Shown here in pieces: positions 54,306-60,030 of a stretch of DNA of 64,000 nt. The notes under the pieces are model-generated. The model saw only the letters and a program-made list of their open reading frames with translations, did no database searches and had not been told where the DNA came from. A program made the position numbers and the translations under genes. Source of the DNA: Acidobacteriota bacterium (GTDB lineage Bacteria > Acidobacteriota > Polarisedimenticolia > JAPUKU01); assembly GCA_027295505.1 (NCBI GenBank), contig JAPUKU010000045.1, positions 20,586 through 84,585 of the forward strand. Direction: 5' to 3'. Numbering within the stretch: the stretch's first letter is position 1; each line of letters starts with the position of its first letter.

Positions 54306-54318
54306 TAACTAGCATGTG

Positions 54319-56244
54319 ATGATCAACGCATGTACCAGCCTCCCGCGGGCCGCAATTCACCGTCACCCGCTCCTGACGGTGGCGGCGGGGGTGTTCCTCT
54401 CCTTCACGGCAGTTTCCTCCCAGGATAGCGAAGCGCCGGATGACGGTTCGCGTTTCGCCCACGTGCGCTTCGTCAGCGGCGAGGCGGATCTGGTGCGGGC
54501 GTTTGACGGTGACATGGTTCCCCTGGTTCTCAACCTGCCGATCATTGCGGGAGACCGGCTCGAAGCCGGCGCCCGGGCGCGCCTGGAGTTGGGACTGGCT
54601 GATGGGTCTCTCCTGCGCGCTCAGGGACCGCTGGTGCTCGACGTGCACGCCCTGTCGGCGACCGGCGAAGGATCCGAGTCACTCACGCTTCTTGAACTGC
54701 ATCGAGGCGATCTGTCGCTCGAGATCACCGGCATGGATCAGAGCCCCGATAAGGCGTTCCAGGTGGACACACCGTCGGGAACCTGTTACTTGATGACGGA
54801 CGGGCTGTACCGCGTGAGCGTTGAGCAGAGCGGCAGTGCCATGGTCACGGTGCGCGCCGGAGTGGCCGAAGTCTCGGGAGACGGTGGCACGTCGCTGGTG
54901 CGCAGCGGGCAGACCTCGCTCCTGGCGAGCGGGCGAGCCCCGGAGCGGCCGGCATCACATGGGCTGCGCACTGATGATTTCGATCGCTGGATTGACGAGA
55001 GGAATACAGAGGCTCTGGCGTCGCTTCCCCCCGAGGCCGAGGATCTCCCTGACCCGGTTCGGCCGTACGCGGAAGACCTGACCCGGTACGGTACATGGCA
55101 GACGGTCCCCGAATACGGCATGGTCTGGTTCCCCGCGGACGTACCGGTGGGCTGGTATCCCTACTACGACGGCACCTGGGTCACTTCACCCTCCGGCCAC
55201 CTGTGGGTTTCCTACGAGCCGTGGGGCTGGATCCCATACCATTACGGACGCTGGGAGTACGTGGCAGGTGGCGGCTGGTTCTGGATCCCGGGACCCGTCT
55301 TCGCCGGAGCCTGGGTGCACTGGTGGGTGGGTCCATCCTACGTCTCCTGGGTGCCTCTCGGCTACAACAACGGGCCGGTCATCGACCTGAGCTTAAGCCT
55401 ATCTTTTCATCGCGCGCCATTCAGAGGCTGGGCCTGCGTCCCCTACCACGAATTCCACTCGTCCGATCTGCCGCACAAGTACGTGCGCGACGCGCGCGTC
55501 ATGAAGGCGCACCTCAACAAATCCGTTCGGGTACGACGCCTGCCTGATTTTCATCCCAGGCACCTGCGCACCGGCTCCGATTTCGGGAACGAGATCGTGC
55601 AACGGGCCCGCGGTTCGAGAGATGATCTGCCGCGCCGCAGGTTCCACTCCGCAGGAGTCCGCGCTCGCCCCGCCTCCGGGACCGATCGGGGCTCCCATCT
55701 CTCATCCACCCGGCAGAGCAACCGGCGCAGGTCGATCCGCATGACGACCATGATCCAGGTCCAATCCAACCGGCGCACGTCACGGCGCGGGGACGGGACG
55801 ACCGGCACGCCCCGTCAGAGGACTCCCGTGAGGGAGAGAGGAAGATCCGTGGAATCGCGGGGAACCAGCCCTGCCCCGGCTCCACAGACTTCCAGACAGG
55901 CCCGCCGGCAGGGGCGCAGGAGCTCGGAGCGCGGCGTGGCCGACCTGCTGCGCAGGGTAACCCGGACGCCGGCACCGCGGCGTGCTACTTCGCGTGGAGG
56001 CCAGGTTCCTCGCCGGCCCCAGCCCCGCAGCGTCAGGAGCGGTTCACCGTCGTCCAGAAATGGCGCTCAAGCTCCTCAGGTGAGAAACTCCTCGAAGTCC
56101 CACAGCCGGAAACAGGGCACTTCCGCAAAATCGGTGCGTTCGCGATCCGGCAAGAAGGTTTCCACTGGCTCCCGGCCCAAGGCCCGGAAATCCTCCTCCG
56201 GCAAGGCCAAGCGATCGAACAAGCCCAAGCCACGTCCCCGGTGA
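54319..56244 (+). CDS. FecR-domain protein with a W/Y/G-rich repeat region and a long Arg/Ser/Lys-rich disordered C-terminal tail
   Basis: Signal or anchor peptide, then a FecR-like domain (..NLPIIAGDRLEAGARARLELGLADGSLLRA..FQVDTPSGTCYLMTDGLYRVSV..). A region follows with the repeated motif W-x-P-Y-x-x-G-x-W (YGTWQTVPEYGMVWF, GWYPYYDGTWV, WGWIPYHYGRWEY, GGGWFWIPGP). The last roughly 230 aa are basic and low-complexity. Confidence 0.6.
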   Translation: MINACTSLPRAAIHRHPLLTVAAGVFLSFTAVSSQDSEAPDDGSRFAHVRFVSGEADLVRAFDGDMVPLVLNLPIIAGDRLEAGARARLELGLADGSLLRAQGPLVLDVHALSATGEGSESLTLLELHRGDLSLEITGMDQSPDKAFQVDTPSGTCYLMTDGLYRVSVEQSGSAMVTVRAGVAEVSGDGGTSLVRSGQTSLLASGRAPERPASHGLRTDDFDRWIDERNTEALASLPPEAEDLPDPVRPYAEDLTRYGTWQTVPEYGMVWFPADVPVGWYPYYDGTWVTSPSGHLWVSYEPWGWIPYHYGRWEYVAGGGWFWIPGPVFAGAWVHWWVGPSYVSWVPLGYNNGPVIDLSLSLSFHRAPFRGWACVPYHEFHSSDLPHKYVRDARVMKAHLNKSVRVRRLPDFHPRHLRTGSDFGNEIVQRARGSRDDLPRRRFHSAGVRARPASGTDRGSHLSSTRQSNRRRSIRMTTMIQVQSNRRTSRRGDGTTGTPRQRTPVRERGRSVESRGTSPAPAPQTSRQARRQGRRSSERGVADLLRRVTRTPAPRRATSRGGQVPRRPQPRSVRSGSPSSRNGAQAPQVRNSSKSHSRKQGTSAKSVRSRSGKKVSTGSRPKARKSSSGKAKRSNKPKPRPR

Positions 56245-56705
56245 AAGTGGTGAGGGCTGGAACCCCTGTTGCAGTTGTCACCGCGATCCTGACCCTCAGC
56301 GCCCTGCAGCCCGTCTTCGGGAACGCAACTGCGCCGGAAGGCGGCGGGCCATCCACCGAAAAGCCGAAACTGGTCCTGAAAGCCGAGCCGCGAATCGGCT
56401 TCAGCCCCCTGCGGCTGACCCTGCGCGCCGTGCTCAGCGGCGTGTCAAGCGATGACCTTAACTTCTGCCACGTGGATCAGCTCTGGCTCGGCAAGCGCTC
56501 TGACAGCCCCGGGGCGCGAGAGCGCGCCTCCGCACACCGGCCGCGCTGCCACCATCCGGACGACAAGAAGCAGGTCGAGATGGTCTTCTTCAAGGACCTG
56601 AACCTCTACTCCCCGGGGGCTTACATCTATCGATTGAAGTTGGAGCCCAAGCAGGGTCCACCCCTCATCTCGAATCCAGTGACGTTGCGGGTTCTGAGGC
56701 GCTAG
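56241..56705 (+). CDS. small secreted two-cysteine protein (paralogue 1), translationally coupled to the FecR-like gene
   Basis: GTG start in a GTGA overlap with the upstream stop; signal peptide; 154 aa. Paralogous to the 57840/57876 ORF, sharing the pattern L..L.GV..DD..FCH......GK....H.PRC.H..KK.......KD....PG.Y..RL........I.SN. Confidence 0.5.
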   Translation: MKVVRAGTPVAVVTAILTLSALQPVFGNATAPEGGGPSTEKPKLVLKAEPRIGFSPLRLTLRAVLSGVSSDDLNFCHVDQLWLGKRSDSPGARERASAHRPRCHHPDDKKQVEMVFFKDLNLYSPGAYIYRLKLEPKQGPPLISNPVTLRVLRR

Positions 56706-56753
56706 GGGGAGAGCGGCGCGGCGCACTGAGGCTGCGGCGAGAGGCGCCGCCGT

Positions 56754-57683
56754 TCAGCGGCGGGTGAGGTTGTAGGCTGCCAGCTGCGCCTGGAAGCGCA
56801 CGCTCTGCTTCGGGTCGGTGCCGGCGATCTGCTCCAAGGCGGGAAGAATGTCTGTCTTACCCCTTGCCTCCAGAGTGCGCACCGCTTCCTTCCTCACCGC
56901 CGTGTCCTCGTCTTCACGTGCCCGGGTGAGAAGATGCGTGAGAAGGTGATCCTCGTTGTTGAGCTGTGCCTGCCACAGATCCCTGTCCTCGTACATCTGC
57001 GCCAGCAGCATGAGCGCCCCACGTCGGAAGTCCGGCACCGCATGATCCAGGATCGGTAGCACCGCACGGATCTGTTCCGGTCTACCCAGCCTCAGCCGCA
57101 CCATCTGCTGCAGACCGGCCTCCAGCACAAGTGGATTGGGATCAGAGAGAAAAGACTGCAGGTCCTCGTACATTTTTTCGATGTCGGCCTGCTCCTGTAC
57201 GTGCACAAAGCGGCGGGTCGCCTCCAGGAGGGCGTTGGCGCCTTCGGGAGGCAGCGTCACCTTGCCTTGGTGCCCGTAGACGAGCGAAAAGCGATCCGGG
57301 CGCGGGTTCTCACCGCGGATGTCCTCGAACGGCTTCATGAACAGCAGTACCCGTTCTCCGTTACTGAACTCGACCTTTTCTTCCCAGATTCTCCGTGTGA
57401 AGTTGTCGAGCCTGAAAACGATCCATAGTCGCGGCTCATCGTAGAACCCTTTCAGGACCTCCTCGATCTCGATCTCCGCAAGGCGAAGGTCGCCGCGGAT
57501 CACTTTCCCTCGCACCACGAGCGTGCTCATGGCCGGCTTTTCAAAAAGGCTGAGATGGATGAGGTCGGCCCATGCCGGGCACAGCCCCGCGAGCCAGCCG
57601 ATCGCCAGAACGAGGAGGAATCCCCGTTCGAATCCGGCGCGGTGGGGGCGGGTCGGAGAGATCCTGCACGGTCGTTCACGCAT
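56754..57683 (-). CDS. secreted HEAT/PBS-lyase-repeat protein
   Basis: Signal peptide (FLLVLAIGWLAGLCPAWA) and C-terminal HEAT-like repeats (NPLVLEAGLQQMVRL.., VLPILDHAVPDFRRGALMLLAQM.., DTAVRKEAVRTLEARGKTDILPALEQIA..). Confidence 0.6.
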   Translation of the reverse strand: MRERPCRISPTRPHRAGFERGFLLVLAIGWLAGLCPAWADLIHLSLFEKPAMSTLVVRGKVIRGDLRLAEIEIEEVLKGFYDEPRLWIVFRLDNFTRRIWEEKVEFSNGERVLLFMKPFEDIRGENPRPDRFSLVYGHQGKVTLPPEGANALLEATRRFVHVQEQADIEKMYEDLQSFLSDPNPLVLEAGLQQMVRLRLGRPEQIRAVLPILDHAVPDFRRGALMLLAQMYEDRDLWQAQLNNEDHLLTHLLTRAREDEDTAVRKEAVRTLEARGKTDILPALEQIAGTDPKQSVRFQAQLAAYNLTRR

Positions 57684-57755
57684 CTGGGTCTTCTCGAATT
57701 ATAGGGCCTGGACGCGCCGCGACAATCGACCGGACAGCTTCACCTGAAAATCCAG

Positions 57756-57878
57756 GGCTTACAATCTATTTTATTCGTATAGTTGACAATTATATATTGA
57801 ATATACATATTGTAGGATATCGAGACAAAAATATATGTAATGAATATGTATTATAAGAAAAATAGATATTCAATAATG
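57756..57878. promoter_or_regulatory. AT-rich island (GC far below the local background of about 66%) with a perfect -35 TTGACA (57783-57788) and an inverted pair of TGAATAT(A/G)(C/T)AT motifs
   Basis: Seen directly: ..tattcgtatagTTGACAattatatattgaatatacatattgtaggatatcgagacaaaaatatatgtaatgaatatgtattataagaaaaatagatattcaataATG.. The motif at 57798-57811 is approximately the reverse complement of the one at 57841-57854. Confidence 0.45.
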
Positions 57879-58304
57879 CTGATTCCGACTGCCCTCCTGC
57901 TGGCCGGCGCCACGTCCAGCCTTCCCAGGGCGGCATCCCTGCCTCCCGATCCTCAAAGGGAGTTCACTCCGCACCTGAAAATCTTCGCTGACCGGTACGT
58001 CGCGCTCGCTCCGGCCCGGGTGCGAGTCTACGCACAGCTTGGTGGGGTCGATGATGACGACGTGCGTTTCTGTCATGCGGGAGAGACCTGGATCACCGGT
58101 AAGGTGGAAGGCACCAGCACGCTGAACTCGATCTCCAAGCACGATCCTCGCTGTGTTCACGATCCCAAGAAACTGTCCGTCAGCCGCTCGTTCACCAAGG
58201 ACTACGAGTTCTCACGACCCGGCTCCTATGTCTGCCGCCTGGTGGTGCACTCCAACGACGGGCGCATTGTCCAGTCGAACATGATTGTCATCAACGTTCG
58301 CTGA
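57876..58304 (+). CDS. small secreted two-cysteine protein (paralogue 2)
   Basis: Signal peptide MLIPTALLLAGATSS.. The ORF track starts at 57840 inside the AT-rich island, and I prefer the ATG at 57876. Homologous to the 56241-56705 product (FCHAGETWITGKVEG...HDPRCVHDPKK...KDYEFSRPGSYVCRLVVHSNDGRIVQSNMIVINV). Confidence 0.5.
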   Translation: MLIPTALLLAGATSSLPRAASLPPDPQREFTPHLKIFADRYVALAPARVRVYAQLGGVDDDDVRFCHAGETWITGKVEGTSTLNSISKHDPRCVHDPKKLSVSRSFTKDYEFSRPGSYVCRLVVHSNDGRIVQSNMIVINVR

Positions 58305-58311
58305 GCGCCGT

Positions 58312-60030
58312 TCAGCGGAACAGACCCTTCAGCTTCTCCAGGAGTTTTTCCTTGCCTTTCTCCTCGGCCGCTCGCTTGAGCCCTTTTCGAAATTGGGCCT
58401 GATCAATCTGCACGCTGGGGCCTGCGAGCGGCCCGTGCAGGCGGAAGCGAATCTCCAGGCGCTCGTCCTCACCGACCAGATAGCGCAGGGAACTGGTCTC
58501 GGCCACCATCTCACGGCTCACCTCGGGTGAGAAGCGGCCCACCACGTCGAAGTCGAGCGTGGCATCCAGCCCGAAGGTGCCCTCGCCATCCAGATCCAAA
58601 TCCTGTGATCGCACGGTGAGGTTCCGAGTGTGCGCCTTTCCGCTGCGGATGTCGAAATCACCCCGGATCGAGTCATACGGGGTGGTTTCCTTGCCGATTC
58701 CCCTGCCCCCCGCAACTTCCAGGAGCTTGGCAACCTGGCGCAGGATACTCACGCTCATCAGCTCGCCGTCACGCAGGTCCAGGCTCAGGCCGCCGCGCAG
58801 GTTGCGCGACAGGTCCAGCTGTGTGAGCCCCTGGCCCTCGAGCTTCATCTCACCCGAGAATCGACCCGTCAGGAGGCCCTCGAGATCGGCGCTCAGGGCC
58901 GGCAGGGCGCCCGCCAGATCGATCCGGCTGGCGCGTGCCTGAAGGCTGAAGGGCATGGGGTCGACGAAGGGATTGAGCGAACCGGTGCCGTTGAGCTCGC
59001 CGCCGTACAGGCTCGTGGACAGCTTCTCCAGCTGCAATGCCCCGCCCTCGAGCGAGAACTCCATGGCAACATGGAAAGTTTCAGCTAGCATCCGGAAGCG
59101 CGGCCCCTCTCCCAGCTTCACCTTCAGATCTGAGAGGTCCAGGCTGCCGTTTGCAACAACACCGTCGAGCAGACCCGGCACCGCCCCGCTCCCCTCCTGC
59201 GCGCCGAAAGTGTGGAATTCGATGCTGCCGCGCGCCACACCAGAGTGCACGGCCTCGGGCACCTGCACTCCGGCGACCAGGAGCAGCGGGCGCAGTGTCT
59301 CCACGTCGACATCCAGAACCTCTGCCAGGACGTGAGTGCGGGCGCCGCCGTCGAGTGGAACCTCGCCGCTGAGTTTCACCTTCTCATCGTCCGTGCCGCC
59401 GAGCGCCACGCCGATTTCGAAGCGCCACGCCGCACCCACCCCCCGGCGCTCCAACGTCACCCGCGCGGGCCCCAGAGTCACTCCCTCACGTAACCCGGCC
59501 GGCCCCTCGGGATCAATGAAGACCACGCGCACGTCGCGCAGATCGATTCGATCGACAGGAAGATCCGCAGCGGCAGTCTGATCGGAATCGGCCCGCGTCT
59601 GCTTCACCCGGGGTGTTGCCTGACCTGGGAGCGAAGCCCCGCTCACACCGGGTATCCCCCATCCGCGGCTCTGTGGAAGACGCTGCAGGCGCAGGACCAC
59701 TCCCTTCACATTCACGCGGCCAAGGCGCACCTCCCCGCGCACCAGTGGCCACAGGCGCAGGCCGACGCCAAACTCCTCGACGGTCAGGTCAGGAGCGTTC
59801 TCCCGGCCTCCCACGCGCACGCCGCCACCCTGCAAGCGCAAGCCAAGTCCCGGTTTGAGCCGCAGGTGATCGATCTTTACCGGGAGTCCGATGGCTGCCG
59901 ACGCCTGCTCCTCCAGCAGCGGCAGGAACCGATCGCTTGATATAAGAAAGGGAAGGGCCAGAAAAACAAGAAGCAGCAGCGCGGCCGCAGCCGCCACGAC
60001 CAGGAGCGCGATGCGTGGTTTGCGACCCAT
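58312..60030 (-). CDS. AsmA-family protein
   Basis: N-terminal TM anchor (RIALLVVAAAAALLLLVFLALPFLI), then a long beta-rich periplasmic region of about 550 aa with the AsmA-like N-terminal pattern (..GLPVKIDHLRLKPGLGLRLQGGGVRV..). Confidence 0.65.
   Translation of the reverse strand: MGRKPRIALLVVAAAAALLLLVFLALPFLISSDRFLPLLEEQASAAIGLPVKIDHLRLKPGLGLRLQGGGVRVGGRENAPDLTVEEFGVGLRLWPLVRGEVRLGRVNVKGVVLRLQRLPQSRGWGIPGVSGASLPGQATPRVKQTRADSDQTAAADLPVDRIDLRDVRVVFIDPEGPAGLREGVTLGPARVTLERRGVGAAWRFEIGVALGGTDDEKVKLSGEVPLDGGARTHVLAEVLDVDVETLRPLLLVAGVQVPEAVHSGVARGSIEFHTFGAQEGSGAVPGLLDGVVANGSLDLSDLKVKLGEGPRFRMLAETFHVAMEFSLEGGALQLEKLSTSLYGGELNGTGSLNPFVDPMPFSLQARASRIDLAGALPALSADLEGLLTGRFSGEMKLEGQGLTQLDLSRNLRGGLSLDLRDGELMSVSILRQVAKLLEVAGGRGIGKETTPYDSIRGDFDIRSGKAHTRNLTVRSQDLDLDGEGTFGLDATLDFDVVGRFSPEVSREMVAETSSLRYLVGEDERLEIRFRLHGPLAGPSVQIDQAQFRKGLKRAAEEKGKEKLLEKLKGLFR

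Follow-up and report, generated by a model that had tools for sequence, protein, structure and literature searches.

An AT-rich intergenic island in a G+C-rich Acidobacteriota genome is probably a compact promoter and translation start module

Introduction

At some strong sigma-70 promoters, among them the phage T5 early promoters and rrnB P1, which has an UP element (an AT-rich enhancer upstream of strong promoters), AT-rich DNA spans the whole footprint of RNA polymerase. AU-rich leaders are bound by ribosomal protein S1, and divergent promoter pairs can be governed from a central site, as with activator sites near -61.5 and in LysR-type intergenic regions. To our knowledge, experimental information on promoters and translation signals in the Acidobacteriota is almost nil. 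Here we analyse an AT-rich island (57756-57878) in a stretch of 64,000 nucleotides from an Acidobacteriota bacterium (GenBank assembly GCA_027295505.1, contig JAPUKU010000045.1); this whole stretch is called the window, and all coordinates without a locus name refer to it. The island is flanked by a minus-strand HEAT-repeat gene (56754-57683) and a plus-strand gene, here termed paralogue 2, which together with its relative paralogue 1 belongs to a conserved gene cluster.

A-rich unstructured start regions support initiation independent of a Shine-Dalgarno sequence in Bacteroidetes and also tune initiation in Escherichia coli (PMC6847099), and the local fall in G+C content and structure at start codons is strongest in G+C-rich genomes (PMC2816680). 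When the literature was searched for promoters mapped in Acidobacteria, nothing relevant came up. The comparison of orthologous loci presented here suggests that the island is probably a compact expression module for paralogue 2, with a promoter and an A-rich, unstructured start region as its main function. Most likely it is a fairly ordinary gene-control region and not foreign DNA.

Results

Composition and conservation of the island

The G+C content of the island is 0.21, compared with 0.626 for the whole window. Sliding windows of 120 bp have a mean G+C content of 0.626 (standard deviation 0.056) with a minimum of 0.19 at 57758, and the second-lowest value anywhere in the 64 kb is 0.43, which leaves the island as the sole dip of such depth. 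It also contains the weakest 100-bp duplex of the window (-1.03 kcal/mol per step; mean -1.56, standard deviation 0.07; next -1.30), and 23 of its 122 dinucleotide steps are TA. A first-pass annotation, made from the letters alone, had described a sharply AT-rich divergent intergenic island, and the G+C and duplex-stability profiles bear this out as the unique minimum of the 64 kb. The other three low-G+C spots (28.9, 33.1 and 41.9 kb; G+C 0.43-0.44) show no likeness to it. In the region from -120 to +40 around the start codon, paralogue 2 has a G+C content of 0.29, and all other gene starts of the window have at least 0.49. Within this single sequence only the composition exceeds chance; the promoter elements described below become significant through their conservation in relatives.

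Four near-identical contigs from metagenomes or metagenome-assembled genomes, all labelled Acidobacteriota, encode the exact paralogue 2 protein, and a protein search returned 15 relatives with 55-100% identity. A first scan of a genome collection with the single protein gave no match. Exact-protein look-ups and two profile scans provided 12 distinct orthologous loci from Acidobacteriota metagenomes; the profile scans contributed only five loci, most orthologues coming from the look-ups. The gene order in all 12 is DUF6600/FecR-like gene, paralogue 1, HEAT gene (minus strand), intergenic region and paralogue 2. In each locus examined, the 100 bp of lowest G+C (0.17-0.26, in loci of 63-70% G+C) lie at the same intergenic site. 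Anchored on the -35 hexamer, whose first base is position 0, the alignment of the 12 loci is gap-free from about -36 to the start codon. Its G+C content is 0.15-0.34 per 10-nt block between -32 and +87, with flanks of 0.5-0.7.

Selection was assessed on 57 pairs with less than 75% protein identity over the C-terminal 108 residues, with the shuffle expectation as baseline. Fourfold degenerate sites are 0.49 identical in these pairs, close to saturation for their composition. The promoter block (-14 to +31 from the -35 hexamer) has a pairwise identity of 0.67 versus an expectation of 0.34, and drift is therefore excluded for this core. The leader (+32 to +61) reaches 0.32 (expected 0.31) and the G+C-rich DNA further upstream 0.30 (expected 0.27). 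The first-pass annotation had named absence of the island from close relatives, or its lack of conservation there, as what would refute it. Instead, position and core sequence of the island are shared by the 12 distinct orthologous loci, although the synonymous sites of these loci are near saturation; the compositional anomaly is real and under functional constraint.

The promoter block

The TTGACA and the CATATT at 17-nt spacing to which the first-pass annotation had drawn attention are present at 57783-57788 and 57806-57811 on the plus strand, and this arrangement agrees with the consensus at 10 of 12 hexamer positions. In the -35 hexamer TTGAC is invariant in all 12 orthologues, with A or T as the sixth base. 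The AT-rich spacer (57789-57805) is invariant in length, in T at 57790 and in A at 57794; with A at 0.40 and T at 0.42, this promoter half of the island is A/T symmetric. Of the -10 hexamer, positions 2 and 4-6 (A.ATT) show no variation, the T at position 3 occurs in 11 of the 12 loci, and C, A or T stands at position 1. The hexamer is part of a conserved 17-nt block, TGAATATACATATTGTA (57798-57814, plus strand), which spans the -10 element, extends beyond it and is a candidate operator or spacer contact; in it T+19 and A+20 are invariant and T+21 is kept in 11/12. A position weight matrix of the block scores 30.5 at the island and at most 13.9 elsewhere in the window. Across the 12 orthologues the invariant columns are thus TTGAC at 0 to +4, T+7, A+11, T+19, A+20, A+24 and ATT at +26 to +28.

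Upstream of the -35 hexamer, the AT-rich block TTTTATTCGTATAG (57769-57782, plus strand) occupies the place of a proximal UP element or an activator site and may act as one. T-9 and A-2 are invariant among the orthologues, T-14, A-10 and T-3 occur in 11/12, and T-24 is invariant further up. This block (-14 to -1) is AT-rich and partly conserved, and consists of alternating TA and not of the A- and T-tracts that make up the UP consensus at -40 to -60, where the alpha subunit makes contact.

Within a 900-bp region three promoter-like sites were counted, versus 0.4 in shuffles. The promoter is located 35 nt upstream of the conserved ATG and on the same strand as paralogue 2. At the usual distance of about 7 nt past the -10 hexamer, transcription is predicted to start at 57816-57819. 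The -35 and -10 hexamers (the latter with A2 and T6), the spacing and the excess conservation are all as a sigma-70-type promoter requires, and such a promoter is the most likely reading of the aligned sequences. The regulatory role assigned by the first-pass annotation thereby gains support from a footprint in 12 orthologous loci. A promoter-like site on the minus strand of the island (TTGTCT, 17 nt, TATATT) was considered and rejected as a conserved feature, its position being kept in only 4 of the 12 orthologues.

The same annotation had described two TGAATAT motifs about 43 bp apart in inverted orientation. The 43-nt separation is correct; the orientation is not, since both copies (TGAATATACAT at 57798 and TGAATATGTAT at 57841) lie on the plus strand and the heptamer is a direct repeat. 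Inverted instead are the 9-mers ATACATATT (57803-57811) and AATATGTAT (57843-57851), to which a single ATATTCA at 57866 can be added. When the island is shuffled with its dinucleotides preserved, 56% of the shuffles have an exact inverted repeat no shorter than the longest real one (10 nt), 91% have a direct repeat of 7 nt or more, and 5.9% contain TTGACA on either strand. As a pair of binding sites the TGAATAT motifs are unconvincing: they are at chance level in shuffles, and the second copy is unconserved in relatives except for the start codon.

The leader and the translation start

Downstream of the predicted transcription start follows an A-rich 5' leader of about 28 nt (57818-57845, plus strand), which is G-poor, unstructured and devoid of a Shine-Dalgarno sequence. 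Its sequence drifts freely, with identity at the shuffle level; kept are its length, low G+C content, excess of A over T, and lack of both a Shine-Dalgarno sequence and structure. The length is fixed, with the ATG at +63 to +66 from the -35 hexamer in 12/12 loci. Low G+C content extends as far as about +87, some eight codons past the start, and 0.6 is reached from about +95. The leader contains 0.48 A, 0.27 T and 0.12 G, and codons 2-9 still contain 0.39 A versus 0.27 T. The first codons (YYKKNRYSIM; 57849-57878, plus strand; G+C about 0.3, A in excess of T) encode the charged N-terminal part of a signal peptide. Because this A-rich, G-poor strand asymmetry ends about 25-30 nt into the coding sequence, it points to a constraint at the RNA level on the ribosome-binding region. 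A protein that reads AT-rich duplex is disfavoured, as it would not yield a strand-asymmetric pattern.

RNAalifold applied to the leader and early coding region of the 12 orthologues returned no consensus pairs. The segment from -28 to +30 folds with 0 to -12 kcal/mol, compared with -13 to -22 kcal/mol for equal-sized windows within the same coding sequences, and in a comparison of 53 rough gene starts from the window, the start of paralogue 2 shares the place of the weakest fold. Between -17 and -4 none of the 12 orthologues contains GGAG, GAGG or AGGA, and GAGA, in two of them, is the closest approach to a Shine-Dalgarno sequence; about 38% of the rough gene starts of the window carry one. 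The leader is A-rich at -13 to -19 from the start. Immediately before the ATG, A-2 and T-1 are invariant in 12/12, and A-3 is present in only 3/12.

The ATG at 57846-57848 is conserved in 12/12 orthologues, with an in-frame alternative at 57840; the NCBI start is at 57876. Translation from the conserved ATG gives proteins of 152-157 residues with a basic N-terminus and a hydrophobic, signal-peptide-like core in every orthologue. The start in public records, from which the NCBI product of 142 residues begins at 57876, is probably mis-set, as judged from this alignment. The three in-phase ATGs noticed in the first-pass annotation all exist; only the first two overlap the second TGAATAT motif, and the third (57876) does not. 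In one orthologue (L007 2917-3001) the annotated TTG start (126 residues) cuts off the whole signal peptide.

Several features of this region are confined to single lineages. In the lineage of the window an AU-only hairpin (57841-57872; centroid -8.2 kcal/mol) could cover the start codons. Its z score relative to shuffles, -1.09, is not significant, and two close relatives lack it (L016, 0.0 kcal/mol; L005, -2.8 kcal/mol). In the same lineage only, ATGTAATG at 57835-57842 forms a start-stop mini open reading frame that is out of frame with the conserved start and whose stop overlaps the ATG at 57840. The leader of a 90%-identical orthologue (L005 2966-2984) contains AATAATGATAATATTTAAA, which matches the E. 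coli Fur-box consensus at 14 of 19 positions; this match is clade-specific and presumably due to chance in AT-rich sequence.

The gene cluster

From the conserved ATG, the coding sequence of paralogue 2 (57846-58304, plus strand) specifies a small secreted Ig-like beta-sandwich protein. As an open reading frame of 154 amino acids it spans 57840-58304, and paralogue 1, likewise of 154 amino acids, spans 56241-56705; the two proteins are 32% identical (E 4e-21) and have in common the invariant motif C-H ... H-x-P-x-C-x-H. The paralogues belong to no described family, and the paralogue 2 protein has no match in Pfam or NCBIfam. Its predicted fold is a generic Ig/FN3/PKD-like sandwich that gives no hint at a regulator or a signal. 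With a G+C content at third codon positions of 0.70, the gene resembles the other genes of the window (0.68-0.81). A search of phage and plasmid collections found nothing similar to the locus. Given this native composition, the conserved gene order and the lack of phage or plasmid similarity, the suggestion in the first-pass annotation that the island might mark horizontally acquired DNA is not supported.

Paralogue 1 and the DUF6600 gene share 4 nt at the stop of the latter, so that the two are probably co-translated; paralogue 2 is served by the promoter in the island. At its C-terminus the DUF6600/FecR-like protein (54316-56244) carries some 230 residues with an extreme abundance of R, S, K and P, and the region upstream of its gene contains no related motif. 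Downstream of paralogue 2 there usually follow genes for AsmA and patatin on the minus strand. One clade has an additional gene, for a PAP2 phosphatase, between paralogue 2 and AsmA (L008 3524-4492, L017 538-1395), and in the P0015 clade (L018/L019) AsmA is missing and patatin lies directly next. The downstream order thus varies; the island and the half of the cluster upstream of it do not change. No tRNA or tmRNA genes were found.

The divergent HEAT promoter and the intergenic geometry

The HEAT-repeat gene (Pfam HEAT_2, E 2e-12) is preceded by a predicted promoter of its own on the minus strand (57698-57725), with the -35 hexamer TTGTCG (57725-57720), a 16-nt spacer and the -10 hexamer TATAAT (57703-57698). 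It is conserved in 12/12 orthologues in the form TTG(C/T)C(G/A), 16-17 nt, TATA(A/C)T. In all 12 the -10 hexamer ends 13-14 nt before the ATG (14 nt in the window), and the leader would therefore be only about 8 nt, too short for a Shine-Dalgarno sequence. Since this promoter has hexamers of the same types in G+C-rich surroundings and with a G+C-rich spacer, promoters in these organisms need no AT island, and the island is specific to paralogue 2.

The distance from the HEAT -10 hexamer to the paralogue 2 -35 hexamer is 84-86 bp in 12/12 loci, and in most orthologues 163-165 bp, free of indels, separate the start codons of the two genes. Despite this fixed spacing, some 25-45 bp between the two promoters are at random-level identity. 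In eight more distant orthologues a palindrome, GCATATGAATATGC, is found at -34 to -21 from the -35 hexamer (L008 2903-2917, L009 2903-2917, L020 2901-2915, and the corresponding site in L023, L012, L025, L026 and L015). It is situated about midway between the divergent predicted transcription starts, some 62-64 bp from each. The clade of the window lacks the palindrome and has GGCTTACAATCTATT at that site. The pentamers ATATG/CATAT are enriched in the distant orthologues (P 0.000-0.12 per sequence) and conserved in position, but not enriched in the window itself (3 versus 1.5 expected, P 0.18).

Discussion

On balance, we consider it probable that the island serves paralogue 2 as a compact expression module in which two adjoining halves are constrained at different levels. 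In this model, the housekeeping sigma factor would recognize 57769-57814 through the near-consensus -35 hexamer, the optimal 17-nt spacer and CATATT, all embedded in easily melted AT-rich DNA, and transcription would begin near 57818. The segment 57818-57878, comprising the leader of about 28 nt and codons 2-11, would then form the translation initiation region. Ribosomes may load on its single-stranded A-rich RNA in an S1-binding or 'Kozak-like' manner and start at the ATG at 57846. Such an arrangement may confer high expression from a strong promoter.

Several observations weigh against this model. CATATT agrees with TATAAT at only 4/6 positions, and -10-like hexamers are common in DNA of 21% G+C. 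Neither hexamer contacts nor constraints at the RNA level offer an obvious explanation for the conservation of T+7, A+11 and T+19/A+20, for the A and T that invariably precede the ATG, or for the constant distance of 163-165 bp from one start codon to the other, which shows no indels. Finally, the AT-richness far exceeds that of the other genes in the window (the next start regions have a G+C content of 0.49-0.51), which leaves a gene-specific factor unexplained.

In a tentative alternative, which would add to the promoter reading and not replace it, a dedicated transcription factor would bind an operator array, with the block TGAATATACATATTGTA over the -10 hexamer as a bound site. A dedicated regulator had been proposed in the first-pass annotation and is possible in that conservation of the 17-nt block reaches past the -10 hexamer and spacer positions are invariant, a pattern that could equally reflect contacts of sigma with the spacer. 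The block also has ATAT-NN-ATAT dyad symmetry, and that it is an additional operator of some regulator is conceivable, though we would not assume it. In distant relatives the palindrome GCATATGAATATGC might be bound as well, so that paralogue 2 and the HEAT gene would be switched together; its place some 62-64 bp from either predicted start, the position-conserved pentamers and the 84-86 bp spacing over random-level sequence would fit such a role. The window itself, however, lacks both the palindrome and the pentamer enrichment, the repeats of the island are at chance level, and the ATATG core can be explained by the reversed -10 hexamer and the start codon. A second site is absent from the 64 kb and from the fetched loci: outside the island the window contains no copy of the conserved block, ATAT..ATAT, TACA..TGTA (the BlaI/CopY-type box) or CATATG.ATATG. 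The conserved cluster, moreover, has no DNA-binding gene, and a literature search with the motif strings gave only primers and unrelated sequences. Going further, a regulator could read ATAT-NN-ATAT-type sites across the 163-165-bp region as a nucleoprotein switch of fixed geometry, at the -10 hexamer in all lineages and at the central palindrome in most. We consider this unlikely. If it were true, the AT island would be the landing pad of the regulator, more than a strong promoter, and the switch would co-control an uncharacterised Acidobacteriota envelope cluster of a DUF6600/FecR-like protein, two Ig-like Cys/His proteins, a HEAT-repeat protein, AsmA and patatin.

The remaining explanations account for fewer of the data. 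The island, as the least stable 100 bp of the 64 kb, might open under negative supercoiling, including that generated by transcription of the HEAT gene 85 bp away, and so couple the two promoters, for which the divergent arrangement and their constant distance in 12/12 loci could be cited. This idea, which is purely inferential, we rate as improbable: fixed spacing can have other causes, and the RNA-level asymmetry of the leader would stay unexplained. Slightly less probable still is a target for a nucleoid-associated silencer of the H-NS, Lsr2, MvaT or GapR kind, one of the roles for which such islands had been proposed in the first-pass annotation, with the gene off until relief. The extreme contrast with the genome and the many TA steps would suit such a protein, and the leader half retains composition and not sequence, as a composition-reading protein requires. 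Yet the island is only about 120 bp long and precedes a gene of native composition in a conserved native cluster, its promoter half has invariant single positions, and its transcribed half is strand-asymmetric (A 0.48, T 0.27) up to a point in the coding sequence that matches a ribosome footprint. We know of no silencer of these types in the Acidobacteriota, and none is encoded in the 64-kb window, a genome-wide search not having been made. A structured cis-regulatory RNA such as a riboswitch or thermometer, or a small RNA gene, is very unlikely. The AU hairpin over the start codons could be taken as a sign of one, but it does not differ significantly from shuffles and is missing in two close relatives, RNAalifold found no consensus pairs, and the minus-strand promoter-like site is kept in few orthologues. 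There is also no Rfam match at E <= 1 within 56500-58500, nor one at the gathering score in the whole window. Least credible of all are neutral drift and a relic left by foreign or mobile DNA, be it a miniature transposable element, the end of an insertion sequence or a phage attachment remnant. The atypical composition would agree with either, but the same position and core sequence recur in 12 orthologues with a core identity of twofold expectation (0.67 versus 0.34), and the island is single-copy in the window, has no terminal repeats above chance and resembles no phage or plasmid sequence.

Read as a promoter and start region for paralogue 2, the locus provides a clean case of a promoter of the housekeeping type, defined by phylogenetic footprinting as TTGAC(A/T), 17 nt, (C/A)ATATT, in a high-G+C member of the Acidobacteriota, together with an A-rich start region without a Shine-Dalgarno sequence. 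It may be used to correct start codons in public records, as a reference promoter and leader, and as a candidate strong expression cassette. More generally, conservation of sequence versus conservation of composition and length, and strand symmetry versus asymmetry, can separate DNA-level from RNA-level constraint within a single island.

Compared with known systems, the island resembles rrnB P1 and the T5 promoters in its near-consensus -35 hexamer, 17-nt spacer, A2 and T6 of the -10 hexamer and AT-rich upstream, spacer and downstream DNA. In contrast to them, it is set in an Acidobacteriota chromosome of 63-70% G+C beside a promoter that has no AT-rich flanks, and, unlike in rrnB P1, its upstream block appears to depart from the E. 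coli UP-element consensus. With xenogeneic-silencer targets (H-NS, Lsr2, MvaT, Rok) it has in common many TA steps and an AT content far above that of its genome; it differs from them in being short, in its native genes of conserved order, and in having one sequence-specific and one strand-asymmetric half. Like centrally controlled divergent pairs, the locus has predicted back-to-back promoters at a fixed distance, with a palindrome midway, about 62-64 bp from each predicted start, in distant relatives; unlike these pairs, it has no palindrome in the clade of the window and no adjacent regulator gene.

The translation start is similar to those of Bacteroidetes and to 'Kozak-like' starts (PMC6847099) in lacking a Shine-Dalgarno sequence, in being A-rich around -13 to -19 and in having minimal structure from about -28 to +30. 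Unlike in 'Kozak-like' starts (PMC6847099), A-3 is unconserved (3/12) and A-2 and T-1 are invariant instead, and unlike the Bacteroidetes, the organism is not known to shun Shine-Dalgarno sequences in general (about 38% of the starts in the window have one). The drop in G+C content and folding energy at the start and into the first codons follows the genome-wide trend (PMC2816680), but in the island it is extreme (0.29 versus at least 0.49) and fused to an equally AT-rich promoter. The island is thus best classed with elements already known, sigma-70-type promoters and A-rich start regions free of structure, and represents no new type of element.

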